40,726 bases of DNA from Candidatus Microgenomates bacterium (GTDB lineage Bacteria > Patescibacteriota > Microgenomatia > UBA12405 > UBA6130), in contig WFSR01000062.1 in the NCBI GenBank assembly GCA_015485895.1, positions 1-40,726 of the forward strand, written 5' to 3'. Every line of letters begins with the position of its first letter. The first letter of the stretch is position 1. The notes beneath the pieces are model-generated. The model was not told the origin of the DNA, made no database searches, and saw only the letters and a program-made list of their open reading frames with translations. The position numbers were made by a program, and so were the translations under genes. This document shows, piece by piece, positions 4,263 to 40,726 of the stretch.

Positions 4263-4273
4263 TTGGGCATCAA

Positions 4274-4282
4274 AGTATCGCA
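4274..4282 (-). promoter_or_regulatory. extended -10 like box (TGcGATACT) 11 nt upstream of tRNA-Ala
   Basis: The minus strand reads TGCGATACT followed by 11 nt before G1 of the tRNA. Confidence 0.4.
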
Positions 4283-4337
4283 AAAATTTACTTAAAAATC
4301 AATGGGGATTGGGGCTAAGAACTAGGTCAAAAAAGCA

Positions 4338-4605
4338 CCAAATCCCAAATCACAAATTCCAATAACCAACCCCCCTTCTGTAGGGGCAGGCAAATCCTAA
4401 TTACCAAAATCCTAATCCGCCAGCTGGCGGACTAAACAAATTCAAATGACCAAAATTCAAATATTCAAAACATTTCTTTTTTCTTTATCTTTATTTTTGC
4501 ATTTTGTTTTGGTCATTTGGTCATTTAAATTTTGAACATTGTCTAGGATTTGGGTCATTAGGATTTAGGATTTGTGTGGGATTTGGAATTTGTGATTTGG
4601 AATTT
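4338..4605. repeat. AT-rich, strand-skewed imperfect palindrome built from degenerate 7-mers (AAATCCN / NGGATTT)
   Basis: The left arm is nearly G-free on the top strand (aaatcccaaatcacaaattcc..., caaattcaaatgaccaaaattcaaat). The right arm is its imperfect reverse complement (ttggtcatttggtcattt..., ggatttggaatttgtgatttgg). Positions 4413-4473 match 40319-40379 at 60 of 61 nt. Confidence 0.85.
4417..4430. repeat. perfect 14-bp GC palindrome CCGCCAGCTGGCGG
   Basis: An identical copy lies at 40323-40336. Variants CCGCCAGTTGGCGG (9459-9472) and CCGCCAACTGGCGG (40710-40723) also occur. Confidence 0.9.
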
Positions 4606-4724
4606 ACCCCAGCTCCGCCGGATGGTGGACATCGGAGTTTTGAATTTGGGTCATTAGAATTTAGAAGTTTAATAGGATAATGGAACGATGATAAGCTATC
4701 ATAGCTGGATGCTTTCAATTGCGC

Positions 4725-4730
4725 TATAAT
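4725..4730 (+). promoter_or_regulatory. -10 box TATAAT 8 nt upstream of the GT4 GTG start
   Basis: The sequence gcgcTATAATcaatcacgGTG shares the context gctataatcaa with the secE promoter. Confidence 0.45.
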
Positions 4731-4738
4731 CAATCACG

Positions 4739-5848
4739 GTGAAGAGACAAAAAGTTGCTCTCGTCCATGATTACCTCGTCACTTTCGGGGGTGCCGAAAG
4801 AGTTCTTCTCGCTCTTCATGAAATCTGGCCCCACGCCCCTGTTTACCTAGCTATTTATAATCCCCAAACTTTAGGTCGCCACTGGCATAAATTCCAGCAC
4901 TGGGATCTTCGCCCCTCCTGGTTCCAAAAACTTCCCTTCGCTAACCGTCTCATCTCCCCTTTCCGCTTTCTCCTTCCTTATATTTGGGAAAGTTTTGACC
5001 TTTCTTCTTATGACCTAGTTATTTCTTCTTCCGCTTGGGCCATGAGCAAAGCCGTTCTCACCCCCTCTACCAGCAAGCACGTTTGCTACTGTCACACTCC
5101 ACCTCGTTTTCTCTACGGTTACCCCGGTGCCCGTCCCTGGCAACATCACAAATTGGTAAAATTATACGCTCACTTCATTAACCACCATCTTCGCATCTAT
5201 GACTACCTCAGCAGTCAACGGGTAGATTATTTCATCGCCAACTCTCAAGAAGTTGCCCGGCGGATCCAAAAATTCTGGCGACGCCAGGCCCAGGTTATTT
5301 ACCCCCCGATTGATATCCCTGCTGTATTACCTTCTTCCCCTAAGCGTAACTTTTATCTTTACGTTAGTCGACTGGTATCTTACAAACATCCCCTCTTGGC
5401 TGCTAAAGCTTGTCACCATCTCCGTCGTCATCTAACTATAGTTGGCCAGGGTCCACTTGAAAAGAAAGTAGCTCACTTTGCTACACAAAGTCCTTATATC
5501 CATTATTTAGGCCATATTTCTGATCAAAGACTTCATCATCTCTACCAACAAGCCAAGGCTCTCATTTTCCCAGCCGAGAGCGAGGATTTAGGTATGGTTC
5601 CTCTCGAAGCAGCCGCCTGGGGAACACCCACCATTGCTTACTATTCTGGTGGCGCTAAAGAAACTGTTCGACCACAAAATACTGGCCTCTTCTTTTCTAA
5701 ACTTACCCAACCATCTCTCATTCATGCTATTCTAAAGTTTGAAAAAAATAATTGGTCAGCCAAAATTTGCTATCAATGGGCCCGCCGGTTTCGAAAAGAG
5801 AACTTCCAAAAAGCTATCCGTCGCTTTGTTGCCCAGCATCGGGCTTAG
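4739..5848 (+). CDS. glycosyltransferase, GT4-like (GT-B fold)
   Basis: 369 aa with a C-terminal EX7E-type region (PAESEDLGMVPLEAAAWGTPTIAY). GTG start. Confidence 0.78.
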   Translation: MKRQKVALVHDYLVTFGGAERVLLALHEIWPHAPVYLAIYNPQTLGRHWHKFQHWDLRPSWFQKLPFANRLISPFRFLLPYIWESFDLSSYDLVISSSAWAMSKAVLTPSTSKHVCYCHTPPRFLYGYPGARPWQHHKLVKLYAHFINHHLRIYDYLSSQRVDYFIANSQEVARRIQKFWRRQAQVIYPPIDIPAVLPSSPKRNFYLYVSRLVSYKHPLLAAKACHHLRRHLTIVGQGPLEKKVAHFATQSPYIHYLGHISDQRLHHLYQQAKALIFPAESEDLGMVPLEAAAWGTPTIAYYSGGAKETVRPQNTGLFFSKLTQPSLIHAILKFEKNNWSAKICYQWARRFRKENFQKAIRRFVAQHRA

Positions 5849-9250: not shown

Positions 9251-9257
9251 TTATTTC

Positions 9258-9266
9258 AGTTTAGCA
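9258..9266 (-). promoter_or_regulatory. extended -10 like box (TGcTAAACT) 7 nt upstream of the PrgI-like ATG
   Basis: The minus strand reads TGCTAAACT, then gaaataa, then ATG (9250). Confidence 0.45.
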
Positions 9267-9325
9267 TAAAAGAGAGAGAACAACTAGGGAATTGGAGCTA
9301 GGAATTAGAAACTTAGTAATGCGTT

Positions 9326-9363
9326 ATCCTGACTCCTTGACGTCACGTCGGGAAGTTCAGGAT
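9326..9363. repeat. copy of the nested hairpin module ATCCTGA..GACGTnACGTC..TTCAGGAT
   Basis: atcctgactccttgacgtcacgtcgggaagttcaggat. Related copies lie at 20588-20643, 22072-22113, 30638-30680 and 40690 to the window end. Confidence 0.8.
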
Positions 9364-9456
9364 CTCTGACAAACAGGCTGCCTAAAGACGAAAGCTCTGA
9401 TAAGAAAAAAGAAAAATTAGTATAATGAAGTAAATAGAACTAGAAACTAGGTTCGC

Positions 9457-9576
9457 CTCCGCCAGTTGGCGGAGTCGGAGGAGCTGATGCTGGCGACTCT
9501 AGTAACAATCTGCCATTCGCTGAAGACCCAACTCATGCACGCAAGGGTGAGGTATAAATTAGTCTTAGTTAGATAA
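9457..9576 (+). repeat. GC hairpin plus a conserved ~80-nt element and a 45-nt tail (candidate structured RNA/DNA element)
   Basis: 9472-9552 aligns with 16701-16783 at roughly 80% identity. 9532-9576 matches the reverse complement of 16617-16661 at 41 of 45 nt. Confidence 0.8.
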
Positions 9577-9615
9577 GCCTTTTTTAAGCTGATTTTTATT
9601 GGGGAAGACTTAGCG

Positions 9616-9644
9616 TTGACTTGTTGATCCTCCTGGAGTAAACT
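9616..9644 (+). promoter_or_regulatory. sigma70-like promoter TTGACT-17 nt-TAAACT, 9 nt upstream of the tig GTG
   Basis: ttgact (9616-9621), a 17-nt spacer, taaact (9639-9644), and GTG at 9654. Confidence 0.5.
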
Positions 9645-9653
9645 AAGACTACC

Positions 9654-10508
9654 GTGGAAAAAGATAACATTCAAACTACACTTTCTTGGCCAGAAGAAAA
9701 CATCTTTGAAATTAAGGTTACAGTACCATGGGGGCGTATTCAAGGTGAATACCAAAAGTTACTTGTCGCCTTTGCTAAACAACTGGAAAGTCATGGTTTT
9801 CGTAAAGGTAATGTTCCACCCAAATTGGCTGAAGAGAAAATTGGCAAGGAAAAGCTTTACCAACAATTAAGCAATCAATTATTACCTCTCATCTATAATG
9901 AAGCTATTGCTAAAGAGAACATTCAGGCCATTGGTCAACCAAAAATCGAATTAGTAAAAGCAAAAGAGGGTGAGAATTGGGAACTTAAGATTACCGGTTA
10001 TCGCAAGCCCCAAGTCAACCTCGCCGGTTATAAGGAAAAAATCAAGACCTTAAATGCTCAAAGCAAAATTTGGACCCCTGAAAAAGGAAAATCACCAGAA
10101 CAAACAGCTGCCGAACAACAAAAAGAAAAAGAGGATAAATTCCAAAAGATTATTGCCACCCTCTTAAATAATATCACCGTCAACATTCCTGAACCTATGA
10201 TAGAAACTGAGGTAAAAAGAAAAATGGCCGGTCTTATCGCGGATCTCCAGAAAGCAGGAATGAGCTTGGGTGACTATGCCCAATCACAGGGTAAAAGTGT
10301 CGAACAAATTCAACAGGAATATCGACAGCAGGTCGAGGGGCTTATCAAGCTGGAACTAATTTTGGAAGCTATTGCTAATCAAGAGCACATTATTGTTAAC
10401 CAGGAAGAGATTCAGCAGCTTACCAAAAACAATCCTCAGGTAAATACCTATATCCTAAGCCAACTGCTCCGTCAACAAAAAGTGCTTGAATACCTCAATA
10501 GCCTGTAG
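9654..10508 (+). CDS. tig: trigger factor, short form lacking the PPIase domain
   Basis: Ribosome-binding signature GFRKGNVP in the N-domain. A C-domain-like segment (ITVNIPEPMIETEVKRKMAGLIADLQKAGMSLGDY). Only 284 aa, with a short charged linker where the FKBP domain would be. Confidence 0.78.
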   Translation: MEKDNIQTTLSWPEENIFEIKVTVPWGRIQGEYQKLLVAFAKQLESHGFRKGNVPPKLAEEKIGKEKLYQQLSNQLLPLIYNEAIAKENIQAIGQPKIELVKAKEGENWELKITGYRKPQVNLAGYKEKIKTLNAQSKIWTPEKGKSPEQTAAEQQKEKEDKFQKIIATLLNNITVNIPEPMIETEVKRKMAGLIADLQKAGMSLGDYAQSQGKSVEQIQQEYRQQVEGLIKLELILEAIANQEHIIVNQEEIQQLTKNNPQVNTYILSQLLRQQKVLEYLNSL

Positions 10509-10520
10509 TAAAATCTATAT

Positions 10521-11036
10521 ATGGCACAGAAAAACAACTCAGGTCATCAGCAAGGGGGGCAAAATCAGGTTTCTTTTGAAACCTTAGCTAAACAGCAAAT
10601 CTCAAGAGAACAACAGCGTTTGGAAATTCTTCGCCGGATAGCTTTCTTGCACCAAAAAGAAGCTGTTGAAAAAAAGCCCAGCTACAATCTTCTCTATAAT
10701 GGTAGTGAACGGCAAACAAAAGAAGAAATAATTGCTTTACGTCAGGAAATAAAAAAGCTCGCCAAAAAGGTTGTCCATATCCAAGCTAATGTCGACCGTG
10801 CCGTTAACCAAAGGGCTAGTCGGCCAAGCCATTACGAGTTAAGCTTTTGGCAACATCTTCATCGCTGGGTGCGCCAGCTGGTAGAAAAAGCTGACAAGGT
10901 AGATATTTGGTTACAAGAATGGAATCAACGCCGGCGCAAAAAAGGTGATTTTTGGGGAATCGTTAGCAACAAGAAGCGTGGCGGCGCTCAGTTTCTTCTT
11001 TCATCTGAACATTATATGGCGCGATCAGCAGGCTAA
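10521..11036 (+). CDS. hypothetical protein (basic, coiled-coil-like)
   Basis: 171-aa ORF filling the tig-thrS gap on the same strand. No recognisable motifs. Confidence 0.6.
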   Translation: MAQKNNSGHQQGGQNQVSFETLAKQQISREQQRLEILRRIAFLHQKEAVEKKPSYNLLYNGSERQTKEEIIALRQEIKKLAKKVVHIQANVDRAVNQRASRPSHYELSFWQHLHRWVRQLVEKADKVDIWLQEWNQRRRKKGDFWGIVSNKKRGGAQFLLSSEHYMARSAG

Positions 11037-11057
11037 TTTGACTTTCACCCCGAGAGC

Positions 11058-12842
11058 ATGTTTAATAAAACAAAAGTGAAAAAAACCAAAACAGAAAAGT
11101 TAGCCATTCTACGTCATTCCTGTGAGCATTTACTAATGCAAGCTATGTTGCGTCTCTGGCCGGGGAAAATTCTAATGGCACTAGGACCGGCAACCAAGAA
11201 CGGTTTCTATGCTGACTTTGAAACCCTCGATAATTTAAAAATTACCCCCACTGACTTTCCCAAAATAGAGGCAGAAATGCACAAAATCGTTCAAGAAAAG
11301 TTACTGTTCAAAAAATATATTATTAATACAAAAAGAGCACGAAAATTATTCGCCAATAATCCCTATAAACAGGAGCTTATCGACGATATCGTGCACAAAA
11401 AAGAGCCTATTTCTATTTATTATACCGGCAGAGACTTTGTTGATCTTTGCCGAGGCCCCCATGTACAAAACACCGGTCAACTAAAGCACTTTAAGCTCTT
11501 AAGTGTAGCTGGAGCTTATTGGCGGGGGAGCGAAAAAAATAAAATGCTCACTAGAATTTACGGAACTTGTTTCCCGACTAAGAAGGAATTAGATACTTAT
11601 CTCAAGCAACGCGCGGAAGCACAAAAACGTGATCATCGCCGTTTGGGAGAAGAGCTGGATCTCTTTATTATTGATGAGACAGTAGGACCTGGATTAATTT
11701 TATGGCAGCCAAAAGGGGCTATCCTTCGCAAAATCATTATGGATTTCGCTCTTGATACCTATCTAAAAAATGGTTACCAACTCGTTTTTACCCCCCACAT
11801 TGCCCGGATTAAACTTTGGCAACAATCAGGCCATTGGGACTTTTACCGTGAGTCTATGTTTGCCCCATTCAAAGCCGAAAATCAACTTTATAGTCTAAAG
11901 CCGATGAATTGTCCCCTACACGTTAAAATTTATAATCACAAAATAAAAAGTTACCGCGACCTACCGTTGCGCTATACCGAAATGGGAACGGTTTACCGTT
12001 TCGAAAAAAGCGGCGTTCTCCATGGTTTAACTCGCGTGCGGGGCTTTACTCAAGATGACGCTCACATTATCTGTCGCCGTGATCAACTAGAAGAGGAAAT
12101 TAGTCATGCTTTAGAGCTCACTTTTTATATTCTAAAAACGTTCGGCTTCAACAAATTCAAAGTAAAACTAAGTACTCGCGATCCCAAAGAAAAGGGAAAA
12201 TTTATTGGCAATGATGAAGATTGGCAACTAGCAGAAAAACTACTTCTCCAGTCGCTGAAGAAGAATAAAATTCCTTCTTTAGAGGAAGATCGCGGCGGGG
12301 CAGCTTTCTATGGACCCAAAATAGATGTAACAATCAACGACGCCATCGGGCGTGAATGGCAATTATCAACTATCCAATTAGATTTTAACCTGCCATCTCG
12401 TTTCCAAATGCGCTACATTGACCAAAAGGGGCAGGCTCGCCAACCTTTCATGATTCACCGAGCTTTGCTGGGTTCTCTAGAACGCTTTATCGGCATCTTA
12501 ATCGAACACTATGCCGGTGCTTTTCCACCTTGGCTCGCACCAGTTCAGGTGGTTATTTTGCCCATAACTGAAAAGGAAATAGGACCAGCTAAAAAGATAG
12601 CCGATCAATTATCGCAAGCCAATTTACGTTACGAATTAAGCAGTAGTAATCAAACTTTGAGCTATCGCCTTCGTCAGGCAGAATTGCAAAAAATTCCCTA
12701 TCTACTTATCGTTGGCCAGCGGGAAGTTAAGGAAAACAAGATGGTACTACGCCGGCGGGGCAACAAGGAACAGCGAACCCTTACCATAAAGGATTTCTTG
12801 GCTATCGTTAATAAAGAAATTGCCAAAAAAAAGCTTCTGTGA
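11058..12842 (+). CDS. thrS: threonyl-tRNA synthetase (no N-terminal TGS domain)
   Basis: Editing-domain metal motif LRHSCEHLL..DLCRGPHV. Class II core MNCPLHVKIY, RVRGFTQDDAHIIC, IHRALLGSLERF. The protein starts about 60 aa later than the E. coli-type enzyme. Confidence 0.94.
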   Translation: MFNKTKVKKTKTEKLAILRHSCEHLLMQAMLRLWPGKILMALGPATKNGFYADFETLDNLKITPTDFPKIEAEMHKIVQEKLLFKKYIINTKRARKLFANNPYKQELIDDIVHKKEPISIYYTGRDFVDLCRGPHVQNTGQLKHFKLLSVAGAYWRGSEKNKMLTRIYGTCFPTKKELDTYLKQRAEAQKRDHRRLGEELDLFIIDETVGPGLILWQPKGAILRKIIMDFALDTYLKNGYQLVFTPHIARIKLWQQSGHWDFYRESMFAPFKAENQLYSLKPMNCPLHVKIYNHKIKSYRDLPLRYTEMGTVYRFEKSGVLHGLTRVRGFTQDDAHIICRRDQLEEEISHALELTFYILKTFGFNKFKVKLSTRDPKEKGKFIGNDEDWQLAEKLLLQSLKKNKIPSLEEDRGGAAFYGPKIDVTINDAIGREWQLSTIQLDFNLPSRFQMRYIDQKGQARQPFMIHRALLGSLERFIGILIEHYAGAFPPWLAPVQVVILPITEKEIGPAKKIADQLSQANLRYELSSSNQTLSYRLRQAELQKIPYLLIVGQREVKENKMVLRRRGNKEQRTLTIKDFLAIVNKEIAKKKLL

Positions 12843-12857
12843 TATAGTAAGGAGTAG

Positions 12858-13409
12858 TTGCCTGTGAGAAAGCAAGAAAAGACTATTTTTTATCGAATAA
12901 ATTGGCAAATACGGGCATCGCCCATTCGCGTTATTGACAGTCAGGGCAAACAATTGGGTATCTTAGCTTTAGACAAAGCACGGATTTTAGCTCAAGAGAA
13001 AGGTCTTGATTTGGTTGAGATAGCGCCTAGAGCCAAGCCACCGGTGGCAAAATTAATTAATTATGCTAAATTTAAGTATCAACAGCAAAAAAAGCGACGG
13101 CAAGAACACAAAAAACAGAAAAGGGGAGAAGTAAAAGAATTTCGCTTTTCCCCATTTGTTGAAGAAGCCGATGTTACCAGGAAATTGAAAAGAGCTAAGA
13201 AATTCAGTTTGGCAGGAAGAAGGTTAAAAATTACCGTCCGTTTCCGGGGACGGCAAATTACCAAGCAGAATTTTGGTTATGATTTAATTAATAAAATTGC
13301 TAAAATTCTAGAGGAAAATTATCAACTAGAGGAGAAACCAAAAATTATAGGAAAAAGACTTATTGCTTTTTTTAAACCTATAAAGCATGAAAACGAAACA
13401 AAAAATTAG
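12858..13409 (+). CDS. infC: translation initiation factor IF-3
   Basis: RINWQIRASPIRVIDSQGKQLGI and LDLVEIAPRAKPPVAKLINY. Non-ATG start: TTG at 12858, or more likely GTG at 12864, which lies 9 nt after AAGGAG (12849-12854). Confidence 0.9.
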   Translation: MPVRKQEKTIFYRINWQIRASPIRVIDSQGKQLGILALDKARILAQEKGLDLVEIAPRAKPPVAKLINYAKFKYQQQKKRRQEHKKQKRGEVKEFRFSPFVEEADVTRKLKRAKKFSLAGRRLKITVRFRGRQITKQNFGYDLINKIAKILEENYQLEEKPKIIGKRLIAFFKPIKHENETKN

Positions 13410-13590
13410 AAAAGCCCTTTCAAAACGTTTTAGAATAACGCCGAAAGGGAAAATTTTGCGTCTCCATAGCGGCGGTCGTCACCTTCGCCGGCGAAAAAGC
13501 CGGAAACAAAAACGCCGCCTCAAGAAACCAATAGAGGTAAAAGGCCGTTTGGCTATCAAACTTAGGAAATTGTTAGGAGGTAAAAAATGA
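13387..13590 (+). CDS. rpmI: 50S ribosomal protein L35
   Basis: MKTKQKIRKALSKRFRITPKGKI... In the conserved infC-rpmI-rplT order. Overlaps infC by 23 nt. Confidence 0.9.
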   Translation: MKTKQKIRKALSKRFRITPKGKILRLHSGGRHLRRRKSRKQKRRLKKPIEVKGRLAIKLRKLLGGKK

Positions 13591-13961
13591 GAGTGAAAAC
13601 GGGGTATTCACGACGCCGTCACCATAAAAAAATTCTTCAGCAAACAAAGGGGTACAGAATGACCCACCATCGTCTTCTCAAGGTTGCCCACGAGGCTCTT
13701 CTCCACGCAGGCCAATACGCATTCGCGGGTCGCAAAAAACGAAAGCGAGACTTGCACCGATTATGGATTACCCGCTTAAACGCTGCTCTTCGTCAGGAAA
13801 ATCTCATCTATTCCCATTTTATTCATCTCTTAAAAAAGAGAGGGGTTACGCTGAACCGCAAAATGTTGGCCGAATTGGCTACGCGTGAACCGTTAAAATT
13901 TAAAGCTTTACTCTCTGCGATATTACCACCGTCATCCCAAAATCCTAAGGCTGAGAAGTAG
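13587..13961 (+). CDS. rplT: 50S ribosomal protein L20
   Basis: MRVKTGYSRRRHHKKILQQTKGY...RKKRKRDLHRLWITRLNAA. AGGAGG lies 6 nt upstream. Confidence 0.95.
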   Translation: MRVKTGYSRRRHHKKILQQTKGYRMTHHRLLKVAHEALLHAGQYAFAGRKKRKRDLHRLWITRLNAALRQENLIYSHFIHLLKKRGVTLNRKMLAELATREPLKFKALLSAILPPSSQNPKAEK

Positions 13962-16539: not shown

Positions 16540-16616
16540 AAATTATTATAAACTAATAGACGTCGAAAGACTAGAATTAGTCTTACCTAATCAAAAAGCG
16601 GATTAAAAGAGAATCT

Positions 16617-16661
16617 TTATCTAACTAAGACTAATTTATATTTCGCCCATGCGTGCATGAG
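16617..16661 (-). repeat. inverted 45-nt copy of the tail of the 9457-9576 element
   Basis: The reverse complement ctcatgcacgcatgggcgaaatataaattagtcttagttagataa matches 9532-9576 at 41 of 45 nt. Confidence 0.85.
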
Positions 16662-16700
16662 CAGAATGACAAATACATGGCGCATCCACAATAGAAAGAA

Positions 16701-16783
16701 GAGTCAGATGAGCTGACGCTGGTGACTCTAGCAACAATCTGCCATTCACCGAAGACTCAGTTCTTGCCTGCAAGGGCGGATGG
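16701..16783 (+). repeat. direct copy of the conserved ~80-nt element
   Basis: gagtcagatgagctgacgctggtgactctagcaacaatctgccattcaccgaagac... aligns with 9472-9552. The stem gagtca/tgactc replaces gagtcg/cgactc, one compensatory pair. Confidence 0.8.
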
Positions 16784-16825
16784 CAAAGAAACATATACCT
16801 GAGACCCTAAATAAGGCTTGTTATT

Positions 16826-16864
16826 AATTTCAGTCCGATTTTTCAATTAAGTGGGACTGAAATT
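16826..16864. other. strong 11-bp hairpin upstream of thyX
   Basis: aatttcagtcc - 17-nt loop - ggactgaaatt. No T-run follows. Function unknown. Confidence 0.6.
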
Positions 16865-16979
16865 GCGTTATAACAGCTACGAATTTGCATAACAAACTTT
16901 TCTAGGTCACTAAAAATAACTGAAAGATCACTCTGGCGAGCTCCTTGCAACCAGGGCAGCAATAAGTTATTTTAAGATA

Positions 16980-18590: not shown

Positions 18591-18609
18591 AAACGAAGTA
18601 AAATAAAGG

Positions 18610-20391: not shown

Positions 20392-20395
20392 TTCG

Positions 20396-20497
20396 TAACT
20401 GTTAAGCCTCAAATAAATGTTTCACTTTTAACCTAGCGAGACGCAGGAACTCTAAAAGCTAAGAAACGCTAAATAAAGAGAAGGAAGACTAGAATTT
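20396..20497 (+). repeat. ~100-nt repeat module shared with 21942-22040
   Basis: taactgttaagcctcaaataaatgtttcacttttaacctagcgagac... versus taagtgttaagtctcaaatgaacgtttacacttttagcctagcgaaac..., roughly 80% identity by eye. Confidence 0.8.
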
Positions 20498-20503
20498 GCC
20501 TTT

Positions 20504-20650
20504 CCCCGTCATCCCGCCCTTTCTTATGAAAGAGCGGGGTCTTCAGTGAGTGTCTAATTGACATTGATGGTTCACTACCCACTGAAGATCCTGAAACCCC
20601 AGGCCCCGACGTGACGTCGGGACGGAGCGGGTAAATTCAGGATGACGGGG
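20504..20650. repeat. 147-bp element with perfect 11-bp terminal inverted repeats (CCCCGTCATCC / GGATGACGGGG) enclosing three consecutive hairpins
   Basis: hp1 at 20513-20538 (cccgc-c-ctttc ttat gaaag-a-gcggg). hp2 at 20541-20587 (cttcagtg...cactgaag). hp3 at 20588-20643 (atcctgaa...ccccgacgtgacgtcggg...ttcaggat). Confidence 0.85.
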
Positions 20651-20743
20651 TGTTGATAACTATTGACAGAGGGTGTGAATGTTTATCTGATACTCAACAC
20701 CTAGCAATTGTTTTTAACAACACAAAAATTCTCGCCAATTTCG

Positions 20744-20752
20744 TGCTATTAT
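20744..20752 (+). promoter_or_regulatory. extended -10 box (TGcTATTAT) 10-13 nt upstream of the CBS gene start
   Basis: tgcTATTAT, then aaagaaaagg, then GTG ATG. Confidence 0.4.
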
Positions 20753-20762
20753 AAAGAAAAGG

Positions 20763-21833: not shown

Positions 21834-21941
21834 CCAAAATAAGCACCCTCGCCTAATTCGGGGCTAGCTCTCCACCACATTGGCAACACCCAAAATTATT
21901 ATGGGGCTAAGTCCACCAGCTGATGGATTGGAACTAGAGAT

Positions 21942-22040
21942 TAAGTGTTAAGTCTCAAATGAACGTTTACACTTTTAGCCTAGCGAAACATAAAAACTTT
22001 AAAGGTTAAGAAACACTAAATAAGAGAAAAACTTAGGATT
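21942..22040 (+). repeat. second copy of the ~100-nt module (see 20396-20497)
   Basis: Direct alignment by eye, same orientation. Confidence 0.8.
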
Positions 22041-22065
22041 CAAGCCCGTTCTGTTTGTCCTTTCT

Positions 22066-22160
22066 CTTGTCATTCTAAAAACCTCCGACGTTACGTCGGA
22101 GGGGGTTCAGAATCTTCAGCTGGGTGTCCGATTTACATTATTAGCAGTCAACTCTCTGGG
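22066..22160. repeat. reverse-oriented, partly degenerate copy of the three-hairpin element
   Basis: cttgtcattctaaaaacctccgacgttacgtcggagggggttcagaatcttcagctggg... matches the reverse complement of 20588-20650. hp3 is preserved (attctaaa / ttcagaat around cctccgacg tta cgtcggagg). Confidence 0.7.
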
Positions 22161-22221
22161 GATCCTTAAGCCGATTTTTGATTGGGTAAGACTCGGGATT
22201 TTATTTTGCCGCTCATTTGTG

Positions 22222-22227
22222 TATAAT
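22222..22227 (+). promoter_or_regulatory. -10 box TATAAT 9 nt upstream of tRNA-Tyr
   Basis: gtgTATAATtgagactag, then C1 of the tRNA at 22237. Confidence 0.5.
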
Positions 22228-22236
22228 TGAGACTAG

Positions 22237-26024: not shown

Positions 26025-26031
26025 CTCTCTT

Positions 26032-26040
26032 AGAATAACA
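26032..26040 (-). promoter_or_regulatory. extended -10 like box (TGtTATTCT) 7 nt upstream of the ATG at 26024
   Basis: The minus strand reads TGTTATTCT, then aagagag, then ATG. Confidence 0.45.
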
Positions 26041-26060
26041 CATACCAAAAAATACCCAAA

Positions 26061-26205
26061 TTCCAAATCTCAAACTCCAAACAAAACTCAAAGTCCAAAA
26101 TCCTAAATTCTAAACAATGACCAAAATCCAAATGACCAAATACTTAAACAGGATGGTTTTTAGGCTTCTGTGTTTTGGTCATTTGGTATTTGGTATTTAA
26201 TATTG
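26061..26205. repeat. AT-rich strand-skewed quasi-palindrome (same family as 4338-4605)
   Basis: ccaaatctcaaactccaaacaaaactcaaagtccaaaatcctaaattctaaacaatgaccaaaatccaaatgacc..., then ttttggtcatttggtatttggtattt. Confidence 0.8.
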
Positions 26206-26223
26206 CCTGCCTGCGCAGGCAGG
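26206..26223. repeat. perfect 18-bp GC palindrome CCTGCCTGCGCAGGCAGG
   Basis: Self-complementary. It shares the GCCTGCC/GGCAGGC arms with the 40263-40291 hairpin. Confidence 0.9.
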
Positions 26224-26240
26224 GAACTTTGTGCTTCTTT

Positions 26241-26336
26241 AACTTAGTTCCTCCAACCTAGCTCCATTTTTAACTTTTCACTTTCTTCGCCCTTAGTCCT
26301 TAGCCCTTAGCCCCTTTCAACCTAGTTCCTAGTTCC
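26241..26336 (+). repeat. 7-bp tandem repeat arrays (CTTAGYC x3, CTAGTTC x2) and related C/T-rich filler
   Basis: cttagtc cttagcc cttagcc (26292-26312). cctagttcctagttcc (26321-26336). Confidence 0.85.
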
Positions 26337-26411
26337 ATTTATTAACTTTCTAGCTCTTAAGTCATAATCAGCCATAAGAAGATAAAATTTGCATTCTTTA
26401 GAGAAAATAAG

Positions 26412-26417
26412 TAGAAT
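26412..26417 (+). promoter_or_regulatory. -10 box TAGAAT 9 nt upstream of the rpmF ATG
   Basis: gTAGAATacaaccactATG. No Shine-Dalgarno sequence. Confidence 0.45.
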
Positions 26418-26426
26418 ACAACCACT

Positions 26427-28123: not shown

Positions 28124-28127
28124 AAAA

Positions 28128-28910
28128 TCAAAAAGGATTTTGCCTTCTTACTTCTTGTTTATGTAATGTTTGTTCTAAAGCTTGCACTTTTTCAAAAAGC
28201 GTTTGAGAATGATCAGCAAATGTTCCCAATGATTGGACTGTTTTCATTTCCAAAGGCGAAAGCACAAAAGCCCTAGTCGTCAACCTACCATTTTTGGGGA
28301 GATGCAGCTCGCCCGCAAAATACATCAACAATCTGAGTTGAACATTTACCAAAGAAGGCACAGTATCACCTTGCCGGTGAACCGCCAGACGAGAAATACT
28401 TATCAGGGGCAACCCTTCCTCCAGAGAACGCAAAAATGCTCCTAATTCCTCTTCAGGACCAATCGTATCGAGTTCCACCATTACCGTCTCAGTACCAGAT
28501 CTTTTATGCTGTTTCCGTTGCCCCGCTGCCGACGCCACTTTAACTGCCCCTAAATCGAAGCTTAACTTCTTTACCATAAAATGGTGGCGCTGGGCCGGTT
28601 CCTCCAACGCAAACAATATTAACTGCAAATCACTTTTTTCCGGAAAAGCCTTTTCTGTCAATTGCGCTCGCTGTTTCACTTTTTCCCAATCCCAATTCGT
28701 CAAGATGACTTTTTCTTGCTTTTCCCGTAATAATTCCTGACGCAATTGCCACCAAAGACGCCCCCGCCGGTAAACATGCAACCACCCTTGCCACAAGAAT
28801 CCTCCGCCAATAAAAACCGTTAGCCAAAAAAGGGCAAGGGAGAAAATCGCCTGCCGGGCAACTTTATTTTGCCAAAGCTGTTGGTCTAGAATCAACCATC
28901 CCAGACGCAT
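28128..28910 (-). CDS. PilO-like type IV pilus assembly membrane protein (tentative)
   Basis: A single N-terminal TM helix, a coiled-coil stretch and a C-terminal alpha/beta region. It is the last gene of the pilM-pilN-X operon. Confidence 0.5.
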   Translation of the reverse strand: MRLGWLILDQQLWQNKVARQAIFSLALFWLTVFIGGGFLWQGWLHVYRRGRLWWQLRQELLREKQEKVILTNWDWEKVKQRAQLTEKAFPEKSDLQLILFALEEPAQRHHFMVKKLSFDLGAVKVASAAGQRKQHKRSGTETVMVELDTIGPEEELGAFLRSLEEGLPLISISRLAVHRQGDTVPSLVNVQLRLLMYFAGELHLPKNGRLTTRAFVLSPLEMKTVQSLGTFADHSQTLFEKVQALEQTLHKQEVRRQNPF

Positions 28911-30456: not shown

Positions 30457-30465
30457 TCTCCTTTC

Positions 30466-30471
30466 AGTATA
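30466..30471 (-). promoter_or_regulatory. -10 like box TATACT 9 nt upstream of the pilM ATG
   Basis: The minus strand reads ctttTATACTgaaaggagaATG. Confidence 0.4.
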
Positions 30472-30637
30472 AAGAGAGGGGCAAGAAAAATCAATTTAGG
30501 CTTAACTTTTCACTACATTGGCAATTAAAAACCCAAAGCCTGGCCCCTAAAGCTAGGAAATAGCTGAAAGGGGCTAAAAAACTAAGGGCGAAAAGATGAC
30601 CTGCCATCCATATCTTTGTCAAGTTGAGTTTGGCTCA

Positions 30638-30680
30638 CCCTGCCCCGATCTTACGTCGGAGTGAAAATCAGGATGACGCG
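30638..30680. repeat. degenerate copy of the GACGTnACGTC / TCAGGATGACG module
   Basis: ccctgccccgatcttacgtcggagtgaaaatcaggatgacgcg. Confidence 0.6.
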
Positions 30681-30687
30681 TTATTGG

Positions 30688-30823
30688 CCTAATTCCTAGT
30701 TCCATTTACTTCTCACATTAATTCTTCTTTCCTAATAAAAGCTTTAGGCTTTGGGCTTTCAGCTTTTAGCAGCCCTTTAGGACTTTTGCTTTTTCCTAGT
30801 TCCTAGTTCCTAGTTCCTAGCTC
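30688..30823 (+). repeat. ~135-bp heptamer-rich module shared with 40469-40607
   Basis: cctagttccatttact..., aaagctttaggctttgggctttcagcttttagcagccctttagg, then CTAGTTC x3 plus CTAGCTC (30796-30823). Confidence 0.85.
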
Positions 30824-30901
30824 CATTTCCACTTCAACTTCTCTAAGTATCAGATACTAAAGATTTTGAATTTGGAAAATTGGCAAATTCGGACTTATTA
30901 T

Positions 30902-40217: not shown

Positions 40218-40225
40218 TACTTTTC

Positions 40226-40231
40226 ATTATA
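40226..40231 (-). promoter_or_regulatory. -10 box TATAAT 8 nt upstream of the pilB ATG
   Basis: The minus strand reads gtttTATAATgaaaagtaATG. Confidence 0.5.
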
Positions 40232-40262
40232 AACAAAATAAATCATAAATCACAAGCAGCCT

Positions 40263-40291
40263 GCCTGCCCCGACGTGACGTCGGGGCAGGC
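40263..40291. repeat. perfect 13-bp-stem GC hairpin/palindrome GCCTGCCCCGACG-tga-CGTCGGGGCAGGC
   Basis: Read directly. It has the same core (CCCCGACGTGACGTCGGG) as 20604-20621. Confidence 0.9.
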
Positions 40292-40465
40292 AATACCAAA
40301 ATTCTAAATTCTAAACTCTAATCCGCCAGCTGGCGGACTAAACAAATTCAAATGACCAAAATTCAAATGTTCAAAACATCCTTGTCATCTTTTTTGTTTT
40401 GGTCATTTAGTCATTTGAATTTTGGGTTTGTTTAGGATTTGGGTCATTAGGATTTAGAGTTTGTT
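40292..40465. repeat. AT-rich strand-skewed quasi-palindrome, near-identical copy of 4413-4575
   Basis: 40319-40379 matches 4413-4473 at 60 of 61 nt. The right arm ttttggtcatttagtcatttgaatttt...ggatttgggtcattaggattt matches 4505-4570 with scattered changes. Confidence 0.9.
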
Positions 40466-40468
40466 TGA

Positions 40469-40607
40469 CTTAGTTCCTAGTTCCTAGTTCCATTTACTCA
40501 AACTTCCTCTTTCTCATATTAAAGCTTTAGGCTTTCAGCTTTTAGCAGCCCTTTAGGGCTTTTGCTTTTTCCTAGTTCCTAGTTCCTCCAACCTAGTTCC
40601 TAGTTCT
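40469..40607 (+). repeat. heptamer-rich module shared with 30688-30823 and 26241-26336
   Basis: cttagttc ctagttc ctagttc, then catttact..., then aaagctttaggctttcagcttttagcagccctttagg, then cctagttcctagttcctccaacctagttcctagttc. Confidence 0.85.
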
Positions 40608-40613
40608 ATCTAT

Positions 40614-40726
40614 CTCGTCATGCTGAATTTAGTTCAGCATCTTCAGCTGGATGGGCAACCACCATTATTGATACAACATCCAGCTGGAGATCCTGAACCC
40701 CCCGACGTTCCGCCAACTGGCGGAGT
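40614..40726. repeat. second copy of the three-hairpin element, truncated by the window end
   Basis: ctcgtcat. hp1 at 40620-40640 (atgctgaa tttag ttcagcat). hp2 at 40641-40689 (cttcagctggatg...catccagctggag). Then atcctgaaccccccgacgt... The order and spacing match 20504-20650, but the hairpin sequences differ. Confidence 0.75.

Follow-up and report, generated by a model that had tools for sequence, protein, structure and literature searches.

Results

Eight long spacers of the window share modules

The window, by which we mean the whole stretch of 40,726 nt analyzed here, contains 3,550 nt of non-coding DNA (8.7%). Essentially all of it lies in nine listed spacers, as a preliminary description of this DNA had claimed, and the two remaining apparent gaps are coding, being accounted for by secE (~1340-1525) and rpsP (from ~27640). 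The eight long spacers are as follows, with the strand of each flanking gene in brackets:

S1, 4263..4738: tRNA-Ala/TrpRS (-) to a GT4 glycosyltransferase gene (+); heptamer fold-back with nested GC palindromes
S2, 9251..9653: PrgI-like gene (-) to a trigger-factor-like gene (+)
S3, 16540..16979: PBP1 gene (-) to ThyX (+)
S4, 20392..20762: LPG-synthase gene (+) to a CBS-domain gene (+); hairpins heavily nested
S5, 21834..22236: CBS gene (+) to tRNA-Tyr (+)
S6, 26025..26426: amidase-like gene (-) to rpmF (+)
S7, 30457..30901: pilM (-) to a pseudopilin operon (-)
S8, 40218..40726: upstream of pilB (-); continues past the window end

Each of the eight has at least one gene downstream of it, the five convergent junctions of the window are all without a spacer, and both flanking genes are intact at every spacer. 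When the nine spacers were compared all-versus-all by blastn-short, 70 matches linked nine different spacer pairs. Twenty sets of coding segments matched for size gave 0-3 matches each, and low complexity does not explain the similarities. Modules were common to eight of the nine, with less sharing in S2-S5 than in S1, S6, S7 and S8. The ninth spacer (25213-25313) held no module and had nothing in common with the others in this comparison, so that the earlier claim of a vocabulary common to all nine stands for eight of them.

The earlier description of structured, recombined repeat DNA in a few long spacers was right. The spacers fold far better than shuffled sequence: MFE z-scores against mononucleotide shuffles were -10.5 for S8, -6.0 for S1, -5.8 for S4, -3.8 for S3, -3.1 for S6, -2.6 for S7, -2.2 for S5 and -1.2 for S2, with a mean of about -0.5 in nine coding controls. 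Neither promoter-like sites (28, versus 24.2 in shuffles) nor terminator-like sites (25, versus 21.4) were commoner in the window. A Pfam search of all large ORFs of the window found no transposase, RAYT, cas, Tas or Nop-domain gene, which agrees with the earlier statement that no transposase-bearing IS is present.

Heptamer arrays and fold-back hairpins

We found 14 period-7 arrays in the window, every one inside a spacer, with units that include CCTAGTT, CTTAGCC and GCTTTAG. Array periods are 7-8 nt, and repeat-spacer units are absent, as are cas genes; the sequence was rightly described as not being a CRISPR array. AAATCCN/NGGATTT arms are present in S1, S6 and S8, which also carry heptamer-built, AT-rich fold-backs of ~150-270 nt. 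The features are listed below, with a strand where one applies:

4340..4605: S1 fold-back hairpin, ~266 nt, AT-rich, belonging to the AATGACCAAAATTCAAAT family of fold-backs
4340-4473: its left arm, with AAATCCN, AAATGACC and AAAATTC units
4474-4501: its T-rich apex
4502-4605: its right arm, with complementary TTTGGTCA and GGATTTN units
26045..26200: S6 heptamer fold-back of the AATGACCAAAATTCAAAT family; left arm CCAAATY/AATGACCAAAATCCAAATGACCAAA, right arm TTTTGGTCATTTGGTATTTGG
26250..26357, plus strand: S6 heptamer block of CCTAGCT, CTTTTCA, CTTAGCC (four times) and CCTAGTT (twice)
30743..30824, plus strand: S7 block of 82 nt, GCTTTNG units and a CCTAGTT array
40293..40467: S8 heptamer fold-back of the S1 family, carrying TCCGCCAGCTGGCGGA at 40322-40337
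40471..40606, plus strand: S8 CCTAGTT arrays and GCTTTAG block

The outer ends of the S1 fold-back (4340-4362 and 4583-4605) are 96% complementary. The S8 fold-back matches S1 4412-4473 at 98% identity over 62 nt, although the two spacers lie 36 kb apart, and the S7 block matches S8 40524-40587 at 97% over 64 nt, S7 having one extra heptamer, GGGCTTT. Upstream of rpmF (S6) CCTAGTT reads in the sense direction, but relative to pilM (S7) it is antisense, such that its orientation to the downstream gene varies.

GC mini-palindromes nested in arrays, hairpins and each other

The GC mini-palindromes of the window are perfect palindromes of 16-31 nt from three families (CGACGTnACGTCG, TCCGCCnnnnGGCGGA and CTGCCTGCGCAGGCAG), nested in arrays, in hairpin tips and in each other. 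None of them has a T-tail. Within the window they are confined to spacers (3/3 matches to CCGCCAGYTGGCGG, the variant CCGCCAACTGGCGG at ~40710, and 3/3 copies of CGACGTnACGTCG). We located TCCGCCAGCTGGCGGA at two positions (4416 and 40322) and variants of it at 9458 and ~40710. Palindromes of the CGACGTnACGTCG type lie at 20604, 22082 and 40262-40292; the copies at 9337 and 30643 are degenerate. Hairpins of the form ATCCTGA...TCAGGAT surround a CGACGT palindrome at 9326-9363, at 20588-20643 and at 40690, where the window end cuts the hairpin. The entries at 20504, 30643 and 40690 in the following list were read from the sequence:

4372..4386: small hairpin CCCCTTCTGTAGGGG in the S1 left arm
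4416..4431: S1 mini-palindrome TCCGCCAGCTGGCGGA, in the heptamer arm
9326..9363: S2 hairpin ATCCTGA...TCAGGAT, its tip the degenerate CGACGT palindrome TTGACGTCACGTCGGG
9458..9473: S2 mini-palindrome TCCGCCAGTTGGCGGA
20504..20650: S4 nested hairpins, CCCCGTCATCC ... (CTTCAGTG...CACTGAAG) ATCCTGAA ... (CCCCGACGTGACGTCGGGA, 20604-20622) ... TTCAGGATGACGGGG
22082..22102: S5 mini-palindrome CCTCCGACGTTACGTCGGAGG
26206..26223: S6 mini-palindrome CCTGCCTGCGCAGGCAGG
30643..30679: S7 degenerate CGACGT palindrome CCCCGATCTTACGTCGGAG, then ATCAGGATGACGC
40262..40292: S8 nested palindrome of 31 nt, CCTGCCTGCCCCGACGTGACGTCGGGGCAGG, whose core 19-mer occurs at 118 or more genome loci
40690..40726: S8 end, ATCCTGAA + CCCCCCGACGT + (TCCGCCAACTGGCGGA) + GT..., cut by the window end

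In the last of these, one mini-palindrome is exactly centered within another. Homologous slots of S1, S8 and two copies in a relative (L002, ThyX protein identity 79%) carry differing palindromes or none. The small hairpin of S1 has a counterpart, CCCCTTCGGTAGGGG, at position 3677 of L002 and is missing from the homologous S8 and L002b slots; the slot of 4416..4431 is filled in both L002 copies by another palindrome, CTGCCTGCGCAGGCAG; and in place of the TGTG of S1, L002b carries a nested palindrome of 39 nt. The S6 palindrome is also present in L002 (twice) and in a Gottesmanbacteria locus (L017). The S5 palindrome CCTCCGACGTTACGTCGGAGG was the top minus-strand terminator-like match, and no gene lies upstream of it on that strand.

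The "shuffled vocabulary" of the preliminary description, whose module classes (a to g) were each found at or near their reported positions, can thus be ordered hierarchically into heptamer arrays, the fold-back hairpins built from them and the GC mini-palindromes nested inside.

Blocks present in two copies

Four further blocks occur twice, all on the plus strand except the second copy of the 45-nt block:

9472..9547 (+): block e in S2, 76 nt, with hairpin GAGTCG...CGACTC
16701..16776 (+): block e in S3
9532..9576 (+): 45-nt block that ends in TATAAATTAGTCTTAGTTAGATAA and lies 78 nt before the start codon of the tig-like gene
16617..16661 (-): 45-nt block directed towards the PBP gene, 78 nt upstream of it
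20394..20500 (+): block f in S4, with weaker similarity to the second copy until ~20650
21940..22043 (+): block f in S5
21876..21910 (+): block g in S5, caccacattggcaa...acccaaa
30511..30537 (+): block g in S7

Block e copies are 83% identical, with one compensatory pair (G-C to A-U) in a conserved 7-bp hairpin. Block f copies, ~80% identical with weaker similarity extending to ~230 nt, are direct repeats on both sides of the CBS gene, and their consensus fold is weak (-5.6 kcal/mol). The CGACGT palindrome sits at different positions in the two; CCTCCGACGTTACGTCGGAGG is part of the S5 copy and is missing, as an indel in the alignment, from the homologous position in S4. Neither e nor f had a match in Rfam (E up to 5) or a copy in any retrieved locus of other genomes or metagenomes. 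The two 45-nt copies are 91% reverse-complementary. Because each is directed towards its gene from 78 nt upstream, position and orientation are alike at two different genes, and the block may act as a promoter or leader. Blocks e, f and g, each with only two copies, are explained by a selfish-repeat model no further than as duplicated spacer DNA.

Recurrence in a relative, in other phyla and inside rRNA genes

The modules recur well beyond the window. Over 257 nt, the S1 fold-back shares 77% identity with L002 6076-6329, and S6 26255-26336 is 82% identical to L002 11702-11776, each at a non-orthologous site and the former between other flanking genes. At the junctions orthologous to those 5' of ThyX and 3' of the LPG synthase gene, this relative carries other modules, and its spacers could not be aligned with the orthologous window spacers. 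Metagenome loci matched the S1 core, the S6 fold-back and the S8 fold-back in 69, 30 and 86 cases, respectively. The family has a conserved AATGACCAAAATYCAAAT core spread across many uncultured bacteria, and its 25-mer AATGACCAAAATYCAAATRWYCAAA is present in at least 120 metagenome contigs, at loci with a GC content of 30% to 62%. A complementary arm was found in 65 of 93 non-redundant copies among the matches listed (median arm 73 nt, median apex 28 nt), the arms being register-shifted rather than exact complements. In one related pair (L160 and L211), a 23-nt segment of one arm is mirrored into the second arm in one copy only. Several metagenome fold-backs abut start codons, and often the end of the fold-back precedes a ribosome-binding site or start codon by a few bases (L225, L230, L140 and L240); several fold-back loci lie at contig ends.

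The 19-mer CCCCGACGTNACGTCGGGG was found at no fewer than 118 genome loci, compared with ~9 expected at equal base frequencies, in Patescibacteria, Omnitrophota, Planctomycetota and Elusimicrobia, with 10 copies in one Omnitrophota MAG among the matches listed. Measured against this uniform-composition expectation, the enrichment is in part a weak estimate. It often forms hairpin tips or rRNA helices, and many copies in other genomes have a terminator-like context with T-runs. Viral contigs gave no match (same-composition control palindromes gave 0 and 1), and 7.3 Gb of plasmids of cultured bacteria gave partial, chance-level matches only. Within ~4 kb of the 118 copies listed, no protein family recurred except housekeeping genes. 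Flanking bases lengthen the stem by at least 5 bp in 17% of the copies listed, versus 0.25% in controls; all four outer pairs are kept in 10 of 16 non-seeded copies (chance, 0.4% per copy) as CTCC/GGAG, GTCC/GGAC, TCCC/GGGA or CCCC/GGGG. Palindromy is therefore maintained by compensatory change.

Fold-back copies also lie within 23S rRNA genes (L219 and L226), similar heptamer fold-backs occur at LSU model positions ~283 and ~583 in a Shapirobacteria locus (L039), and module elements were found inside a group I intron. The CGACGT palindrome of L065 and L039 is an LSU helix of native length with no insertion; convergence on a favored hairpin, or conversion to one, agrees with this no less than insertion does. 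Several modules are thus not private to the genome of the window but are common to several bacterial phyla, also inside rRNA genes.

Discussion

The view that these spacers fall outside all standard classes was overstated, as close precedents exist. The closest parallels are the STRR/SDR elements of Nostoc and the GC clusters of yeast mitochondria, whose AT spacers carry such clusters and provide a precedent for the architecture of the window. Fold-back or MITE-like elements and 23S rRNA intervening sequences are precedents as well. Elhai and colleagues are said to have described STRR arrays plus SDR elements in Nostocaceae in 2008 (Genome Res 18:1484). For the same family, heptamer STRR arrays are described in which small palindromic SDR elements sit inside the arrays and inside one another (PMC5861425, PMC4390886), which matches the tandem heptamers with nested small palindromes seen here.

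Because the source is a metagenome assembly, and because such repeats often break assemblies, as the fold-backs at contig starts and ends illustrate, chimeric joins or collapsed repeats had to be considered. We regard an assembly or binning artefact as highly improbable: an independent ENA assembly (L001) agrees indel-free and at 99.8% identity with 9.7 kb of the window (9593-19308), a segment that takes in the whole of S3 and the final 61 nt of S2, the genes flanking every spacer are intact, and the module types recur in MAGs of unrelated studies and inside contigs of up to 260 kb. As far as this second assembly reaches, the spacers are not artefactual. An origin confined to each spacer, by slippage and intrastrand template switching, with likeness due to mutational bias and gene conversion rather than to element transfer, would account for the whole-heptamer difference between S7 and S8, the one-sided mirroring in L160/L211 and the register-shifted arms. 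It sits poorly with the 62-64-nt blocks, partly of non-repetitive sequence, that spacers 10-36 kb apart share at 97-98% identity, with the 257-nt unit shared with L002, with an exact 25-mer in contigs of very different GC and with identical GC 16-19-mers in several phyla, and we consider it improbable.

Another reading is one of functional cis-elements ahead of operons, that is, arrays bound by a nucleoid-associated or RNA-binding protein, or 5'-leaders, with GC palindromes that stabilize or terminate, all recurring by selection rather than by mobility. The placement of the long spacers, the twofold 45-nt block, the fold-backs ending just 5' of ribosome-binding sites or start codons, the 25-nt core kept across host GC contents and the T-runs beside many 19-mer copies are consistent with it. 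Proposals of a like kind have been published for TAACTGA heptamer repeats just 5' of start codons in Beggiatoaceae, Cyanobacteria and Bacteroidetes (PMC4679880) and for heptamer hairpins of Geobacter metallireducens as IHF/HU sites (PMC2700814). We nevertheless think this reading rather unlikely, given the modules found within rRNA genes and within a group I intron, the differing modules at orthologous junctions and differing palindromes in homologous slots, the varying orientation of CCTAGTT, the missing T-tails and the shuffle-level counts of promoter- and terminator-like sites. The position bias itself, of long spacers upstream of genes and fold-backs abutting start codons, is as compatible with function as with tolerance. 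That blocks e and f encode small structured RNAs or serve as UTR elements, and are not repeat debris, is improbable too: their 80-83% identity exceeds what freely drifting spacer would show, given the unalignable orthologous spacers of L002, e retains its hairpin through a compensatory change, and f begins right after stop codons on the sense strand, but with two copies each covariation has no statistical power, and the weak fold of f, the silence of Rfam and the lack of copies in retrieved loci argue against it.

We favor, at somewhat better than even odds (roughly 0.55), the explanation that the spacers are nested, protein-less selfish hairpin repeats that accumulate at operon boundaries and are not gene-specific signals. 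The modules recur in other phyla and at sites that are not orthologous, paralogous copies differ in whether they carry a mini-palindrome, and no linked transposase was found. No target-site duplication could be defined for the modules and no mobility event was caught, the sole second assembly having no indel in S3. Since the hairpins and palindromes occur in many unrelated uncultured bacteria, including in their rRNA genes, they look like very small mobile DNA. Under the selfish-repeat explanation, replication slippage would lengthen and shorten the tandem 7-base arrays; arrays mirrored into AT-rich fold-backs would act as MITE-type dispersed elements; and palindromes of the three GC families would be gained and lost independently in arrays, hairpin tips and each other. 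Spread may occur by transposition-like copying or by template switching at hairpins, at the DNA or RNA level, and effects on expression (cruciforms, RNase III substrates, termination) would probably be secondary. In a compact genome with overlapping convergent genes, only promoter-bearing operon boundaries would tolerate repeat DNA, so that modules would pile up there and be reshuffled by recombination between copies. The organism of the window is not a cyanobacterium but a Shapirobacteria-like member of the Patescibacteria, a candidate phyla radiation bacterium with a tiny genome, and almost all of its non-coding DNA here consists of three nested kinds of repeat.

The repeat-bearing spacers and their surroundings

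The window (GC 43%) is densely filled with housekeeping genes.

Genes of the window
dCTP deaminase; secE-nusG-L11-L1; TrpRS; tRNA-Ala; GT4 glycosyltransferase
PrgI / TraC-like / TraG-like cluster; short trigger factor; ThrRS; IF3-L35-L20; PBP1
double-length ThyX; LPG synthase; CBS protein; tRNA-Tyr; RecG; L32-NusB-RNase III-S16-KhpA; type IV pilus operon

The closest homologues (ThyX) and the gene content and context are those of Patescibacteria / Microgenomates, which rules out the cyanobacterial host that TTGGTCA-type heptamers in the spacers had suggested. A relative labelled 'Ca. Shapirobacteria' (GCA_027039485.1, JALWDZ01) encodes a ThyX 79% identical to that of the window; its locus is called L002 here, and that of a 69% relative L003. 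ThyX itself (16980-18590) is the double-length form of 536 aa common in Patescibacteria, and the trigger-factor-like gene (9654-11036), which is followed by a DUF5660 gene, encodes only 284 aa, with N- and C-terminal domains and no PPIase domain detected. There are no rRNA genes in the window.

Essentially all of the non-coding DNA of the window lies in eight long spacers, S1 to S8, and the remaining apparent gaps encode SecE and S16.

Long intergenic spacers of the window (forward-strand coordinates)
S1, 4263-4738, divergent operon boundary
S2, 9251-9653, divergent operon boundary
S3, 16540-16979, divergent operon boundary
S4, 20392-20762, tandem operon boundary
S5, 21834-22236, tandem operon boundary
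S6, 26025-26426, divergent operon boundary
S7, 30457-30901, tandem operon boundary
S8, 40218 to window end, gene beyond it outside the window

An all-against-all blastn-short comparison of the spacers gave 70 matches in 9 spacer pairs, compared with 0-3 in 20 size-matched coding sets. This bears out the shared repeat modules proposed in a preliminary description of this DNA, and each module class listed there was found at or near the place assigned to it. A ninth, small piece (25213-25313) had also been counted as part of the repeat mosaic; we found no module in it and nothing in common with the other spacers. A small ORF for a membrane protein (MKQKKIMKIVIIIASLALVLGSFWP...) may begin in this piece, running from 25310 downwards on the minus strand, and the true start of RecG is probably near 25212, not at the TTG at 25428. 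When the MFE of the spacers was compared with mononucleotide shuffles, z-scores ranged from -1.2 to -10.5, with a mean of about -0.5 for coding controls.

An independent ENA assembly (L001) reproduced positions 9593-19308 at 99.8% identity with zero indels, and S3 at least is therefore not an assembly artefact. Between the two assemblies there are 19 SNPs, three of which (16728, 16768, 16782) fall within or beside block e of S3, a block with two copies in the window (9472-9547 and 16701-16776). S3 makes up 4.5% of the length compared but holds 16% of the SNPs.

At all five convergent gene junctions the genes overlap or touch (4 nt apart at most) and therefore leave no space for terminators between the two genes of a pair.

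Convergent gene junctions of the window
3182-3201
5814-5848
13945-13961
23188-23191
28123-28128

Long spacers occur in the window only upstream of genes. Each long spacer is DNA that is required to hold a promoter, and the placement of the spacers fits passive build-up where insertions are tolerated. A regulatory model predicts the same operon-boundary placement equally well, and some metagenome copies of the fold-backs described below end directly 5' of start codons. Furthermore, two different genes each have a copy of a 45-nt block (9532-9576 and 16617-16661) in identical orientation 78 nt upstream of them; the block could represent a promoter or leader that was duplicated.

The spacers S4 (20394-20650) and S5 (21940-22175) contain direct repeats of ~230 nt that flank the CBS-domain gene (20763-21833), and the genes around ThyX, LPG synthase and CBS are arranged differently in both relatives (L002, L003). 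Together, these observations suggest that repeat spacers coincide with rearrangement breakpoints. At the two orthologous junctions (upstream of ThyX and downstream of LPG synthase) the module content of the window and of L002 is wholly different despite the 79% identity of ThyX. In L003, no such modules were found in the single long spacer read (11936-12530), which holds a tRNA-like sequence instead.

Heptamer arrays, fold-backs and GC mini-palindromes

The preliminary description had treated the modules as a shuffled vocabulary. The modules are indeed present, but they are organised as a three-layer hierarchy and not as a flat vocabulary: heptamer arrays, fold-backs built of heptamers, and GC mini-palindromes of 16-31 nt.

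The heptamer units are AAATCCN / GGATTTN, TTTGGTCA, CCTAGTT, CTTAGCC and GCTTTNG. All 14 period-7 tandem arrays that TRF detected in the window lie within spacers, and the arrays are likewise intergenic in the relatives L002 and L080. Copies of an array differ by whole units; S7, for example, equals S8 plus one GGGCTTT. The arrays of S1, S6 and S8 are arranged as fold-backs: long, imperfect inverted repeats in which an A-rich arm is followed by a T-rich apex and then by a T/G-rich arm complementary to the first. The outer ends of the S1 fold-back (4340-4605) are 96% complementary, S1 and S8 have 62 nt in common at 98%, and the whole S1 fold-back matches L002 6076-6329 at 77% over 257 nt between different flanking genes. 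The ends of the fold-backs fade into heptamer arrays, so that no target-site duplication is definable, and no transposase was seen among the ORFs adjoining fold-back copies without a second arm.

The third layer consists of the mini-palindromes TCCGCCAGCTGGCGGA, (C/T)CCGACGTnACGTCGG(G/A) and CCTGCCTGCGCAGGCAGG, together with the hairpin CCCCTTCnGTAGGGG. They sit within heptamer arms, at hairpin tips and within one another, and every window copy of both GC palindromes lies in a spacer. ATCCTGA...TCAGGAT hairpins tipped by mini-palindromes were found at 9326-9363 and 20588-20643. As cases of nesting, TCCGCCAACTGGCGGA splits CCCCCCGACGT at its exact midpoint (40698-40726), and TCCGCCGCCTGGCGGA is nested within CCTGTCCCGAC...GTCAGGGCAGG at L002 6331-6369. 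When the fold-backs of S1, S8 and the two copies in L002 were aligned, the heptamer backbone was kept and homologous slots held different palindromes or none. In particular, slot 2 is occupied by TCCGCCAGCTGGCGGA in the window and by CTGCCTGCGCAGGCAG in L002, and a 39-nt nested palindrome in one L002 copy (L002b) corresponds to only TGTG in S1. S4 and S5 carry one CGACGT palindrome each, at positions that are not equivalent. The palindromes are perfect over their whole length, with flanks that vary from copy to copy.

Fold-backs in other genomes

A 25-nt fold-back core, AATGACCAAAATYCAAATRWYCAAA, is common to S1, S6, S8 and L002 and was found on at least 120 metagenome contigs in a metagenome scan. 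BLAST of the three window fold-backs against these loci, as listed, matched 69 with S1, 30 with S6 and 86 with S8. Among the matches listed, the GC content of the fold-back loci ranges from 30% to 62%, and a complementary arm was detectable in 65 of 93 non-redundant copies (median arm 73 nt, apex 28 nt). The contents of the apex vary between copies. A strict scoring of arm complementarity and a strict filter for GC palindromes within metagenome fold-backs both detect less than can be seen by eye. Related arrays occur on a 260-kb Elusimicrobia contig (L018) and, by pattern, in Omnitrophota and Planctomycetota loci. A BLAST of the S1 fold-back against plasmids gave no match, for which low-complexity masking is probably responsible.

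Two of the metagenome fold-backs, L160 and L211, are nearly identical over ~190 nt. A 23-nt segment, cttctgttcaaggcgtcagccgc, occurs in the left arm of L211 but not in that of L160, and it mirrors a segment that both copies have in the right arm; judged by sequence, the difference looks like arm symmetrisation through template switching. In addition, four loci (L125, L138, L213, L224) form a half fold-back subfamily with the left arm only, GCGGCGTAGCCGC 5' of the arm and a conserved non-hairpin stretch 3' of it (agaaaaaga...cgcgaaaat.ttaacaa); no transposase was found near these four.

Mini-palindromes recur across phyla

The CGACGT palindrome, a 19-mer (CCCCGACGTNACGTCGGGG), was found at 118 loci or more, compared with ~9 expected in 596 Gb, in a scan that took a single genome for each GTDB species and with an expectation that assumes equal base frequencies. 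Among the matches listed, its hosts include many classes of Patescibacteria, Omnitrophota, Planctomycetota and Elusimicrobia / Endomicrobiia, and further uncultured Gammaproteobacteria, Chlamydiae, WOR-3 and Desulfobacterota; none of these matches (at least 118 loci) is cyanobacterial. One Omnitrophota MAG holds 10 copies. The 19-mer was found in 0 viral contigs, which is uninformative since two composition-matched controls gave 0 and 1, and BLAST of the 31-nt palindrome against 7.3 Gb of plasmids of cultured bacteria gave only partial, chance-level matches to high-GC plasmids, with no Nostoc among them. A full-text literature search with the literal module sequences returned unrelated primers only.

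The 19-mer frequently forms the tip of a longer hairpin, its flanks lengthening the stem by at least 5 bp in 17% of copies as opposed to 0.25% of controls. It also occurs within other multi-hairpin repeats (gtcattgcgagga...gacgaagcaatc) and nested with a CCGCCA palindrome (L086, L090), and TCCGCCnnnnGGCGGA, TCCGACGTnACGTCGGA and CTGCCTGCGCAGGCAG recur in the set of 19-mer loci, including in 16S/23S variable helices and a group I intron. Among GACGTnACGTC cores outside the seeded copies, all four outer pairs are kept in 10 of 16, with four different flank pairs, and the four central nt of TCCGCC....GGCGGA vary freely, without symmetry. Judging by these base changes, the feature under preservation is the hairpin rather than a double-stranded site for protein binding.

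Another multi-hairpin repeat that is widespread, gtcattgcgagg ... cgaagcaatc ... gattgcttcg ... cctcgcaatgac, was seen in Omnitrophota, Planctomycetota and Gottesmanbacteria (L007, L011, L037, L048, L052, L066, L069, L070, L017, L078, L092, L119 and others). The CGACGT palindrome is often one of its arms, and its gtcatcctga / gaaggatc versions are like the ATCCTGAA...TTCAGGATGAC hairpins of the window.

Repeat modules in rRNA genes

Among the matches listed, the 19-mer lies within rRNA genes at eight loci, and two fold-back copies lie inside 23S rRNA genes (L219, L226). The 23S gene of a Shapirobacteria MAG (L039 4228-7688) is ~536 nt longer than the bacterial model. This gene contains a 161-nt heptamer fold-back at a helix tip at LSU model position ~283 and a second one of ~150 nt at a helix tip at position ~583, the classical site of the helix-25 intervening sequence (IVS); four other helices contain the mini-palindromes CCCCGACGTAACGTCGGGG, TCCGACGTAACGTCGGA (twice) and TCCGCCAGTTGGCGGA. 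IVSs of 23S rRNA, at helix 25 or helix 45, are removed from the transcript by RNase III, which leaves the 23S rRNA fragmented, and they are not known to belong to any family of intergenic repeats. The ~150-nt fold-back resembles them as an extended hairpin at the helix-25 site, a likeness that concerns the related locus L039 only, whereas the window has no rRNA gene.

Other rRNA occurrences were noted as well. TCCGACGTnACGTCGGA stands at the tips of variable 16S helices, in regions that read as V1-like and V3-like, in two unrelated MAGs (L099 484; L118 5170). The 23S gene of an uncultured gammaproteobacterium (L076) has a group I intron (3289-3502) with TCCGCCAATTGGCGGA inside it (3454-3469), and the CGACGT 19-mer (3601-3619) follows ~100 nt downstream of the intron.

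An rRNA copy is not always an insertion. At two loci, L065 and L039, the 19-mer lines up as a native LSU helix of normal or shorter length and takes the place of that helix without added length, and some rRNA occurrences are therefore replacements or convergences. Selection alone would also restrict the surviving rRNA inserts to helix tips.

Comparison with known repeat classes

The preliminary description held that the repeats fit no standard class. This stands for CRISPR arrays and insertion sequences and is overstated otherwise, since close precedents exist. CRISPR direct repeats are ~23-50 nt long and regularly spaced by unique spacers of similar length; in the window, TRF returned periods of 7-8 nt and their multiples with no repeat-spacer periodicity. 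A Pfam search of all large ORFs in the window detected no Cas protein (a Cas3-like_C_2 hit falls under the RecG helicase domain), no transposase or integrase and no RAYT gene. Clustering of the ORFs within ~4 kb of the 118 listed 19-mer copies yielded only housekeeping families and no linked enzyme. In Rfam 15 only two tRNAs passed, and no spacer matched at E <=5 except for a meaningless 21-bit miRNA. Site counts for intrinsic terminators and sigma-70 promoters were not above those of shuffles, and the GC palindromes have no T-tails, so these signals do not explain the window modules. A TIGR-Tas array consists of ~36-nt tandem units (edge repeat, spacer A, loop repeat, spacer B) adjoining a Nop-domain Tas gene (PMC12045711), and neither a 36-nt unit nor a Nop-domain protein is present in the window.

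The closest match in behaviour is the STRR and SDR system of the Nostocaceae. Cyanobacterial STRR were reportedly described by Mazel et al. in 1990, and Elhai et al. in 2008 are said to have described SDR1-8 of Nostocaceae as 21-27 nt long, embedded in heptamer arrays and nested, with compensatory changes and no protein. TTGGTCA, one of the STRR units, occurs four times in the spacers of the window. As with STRR, the heptamer tandem arrays of the window are limited to intergenic DNA, but the STRR host is a heterocystous cyanobacterium and the host here belongs to the Patescibacteria. Compared by description, the SDR likeness extends to small elements of 20-30 nt (16-31 nt here) that sit inside heptamer arrays, inside small transposon-like units and within their own copies, to nesting (40698-40726 and L002 6331-6369), to a hairpin kept via compensatory changes (10 of 16 copies here) and to the lack of an associated protein. 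In contrast to SDRs, which have been reported as Nostocaceae-only (PMC5861425), the elements here are perfect GC palindromes that are common to several phyla and occur also in rRNA helices.

The GC clusters of yeast mitochondria are a second close analogue. These are short GC palindromes in AT-rich non-coding DNA and also in variable regions of rRNA; they are nested or clustered and encode no protein, and their mobility has been inferred from presence/absence differences. Related mitochondrial hairpins are the PstI palindromes of Neurospora and the double-hairpin elements of Allomyces. GC clusters differ in belonging to fungal organelle genomes and in sequence, whereas here the AT-rich matrix is itself made of heptamer fold-backs and the elements span free-standing bacterial phyla.

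MITEs (Correia, ERIC, cyanobacterial Nezha) are non-coding units of 150-270 nt with long terminal inverted repeats, dispersed as non-orthologous intergenic copies that are near-identical within one genome. Both a short non-coding unit bounded by inverted repeats (S1 4340-4605; 65/93 metagenome copies) and several non-orthologous copies (S1, S6, S8, L002 6076-6329 and at least 120 metagenome contigs) are present here. The fold-backs nevertheless differ from MITEs: they have no definable target-site duplication or termini, no cognate IS sharing their ends was found, and their arms consist of degenerate heptamers that are register-shifted rather than exact inverted repeats.

REP elements are palindromes of 20-40 nt with a conserved tag at one end, and in REPIN-RAYT systems they flank the gene of a RAYT, an IS200-like tyrosine transposase. 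The palindromes of REPs are imperfect, their tag is an unpaired GTAG or CGTC, and the base of the stem has AT pairs (PMC3733652). Like REP, BIME and REPIN elements, the modules are small palindromes outside genes, with many copies in a genome, and, as for CGTC-tagged REPs, no dedicated transposase was found for them (PMC3733652, PMC3116915). They differ in being perfect, untagged and nested, with differing flanks, and in that no RAYT gene was seen in the window; the tagged class fails here, in agreement with the earlier view that these are not simple REPs. Intergenic tandem heptamers are further known from TAACTGA repeats, which are patchy across Beggiatoaceae, Cyanobacteria and Bacteroidetes (PMC4679880), and from heptamer hairpins of Geobacter metallireducens termed 'global regulator sites' (PMC2700814). 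These resemble our arrays in sometimes forming two-armed hairpins and in a patchy cross-phylum occurrence that suggests horizontal spread, but they have other unit sequences, and nested GC mini-palindromes and rRNA occurrences are not described there. Taken together, the repeats are a nested small-hairpin type already known, in a new host group; the cross-phylum sharing and the rRNA occupancy were not found described in the literature searched.

Proposed mechanism and implications

We propose a mechanism to which, taken as a whole, we assign a probability of roughly 0.55, slightly better than even. Heptamer arrays lengthen and shorten by slippage, as the differences in unit number among their copies show. 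The arrays would be mirrored into fold-backs, whose arms may be kept roughly symmetric by intrastrand template switching, as suggested by the one-sided 23-nt mirror that distinguishes L211 from L160. Fold-backs and larger blocks are copied into new spacers and exchanged between genomes, as their recurrence at non-orthologous sites and across hosts shows. The GC mini-palindromes would be gained and lost independently, by insertion or else by deletion or conversion, with a preference for AT-rich arrays and hairpin tips; their presence or absence does differ among homologous slots. Effects on expression are plausible as by-products, putatively through cruciforms at divergent promoters, RNase III substrates formed on read-through and occasional terminators.

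A bolder reading, which we regard as tentative and rather doubtful, is that CGACGTnACGTCG, TCCGCCnnnnGGCGGA, CTGCCTGCGCAGGCAG and the AATGACCAAAAT fold-backs represent a hitherto undescribed class of ultra-small mobile hairpins, protein-less and spanning several phyla, that invade hairpin tips. Such hairpins would spread, perhaps by template switching or via an RNA intermediate, by invading or overwriting tips in rRNA helices as well as in AT-rich arrays, terminators and other repeats, and movement would be horizontal among co-occurring uncultured Patescibacteria, Omnitrophota, Planctomycetota and Elusimicrobia. If this were true, they would be to bacteria what GC clusters are to mitochondria and would rank with the smallest mobile elements on record; if they were merely a Patescibacteria version of SDR/STRR, they would be ordinary. 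If the repeats were regulatory, they would point to a heptamer-reading protein common to many uncultured lineages.

The repeats also have practical consequences, as they break metagenome assemblies and generate spurious ORFs, are likely hotspots of gene-order scrambling between close relatives, and could act as strain markers like STRR and REP elements. Genomes of the candidate phyla radiation are among the most compact known, yet nearly 9% of the DNA here consists of nested hairpin repeats. If these repeats are selfish, it would mean that the smallest DNA parasites survive extreme genome reduction, that identical 16-25-nt sequences move between, or convergently fix in, distant phyla of sediment and groundwater, and that such elements can reshape rRNA helices and operon boundaries.
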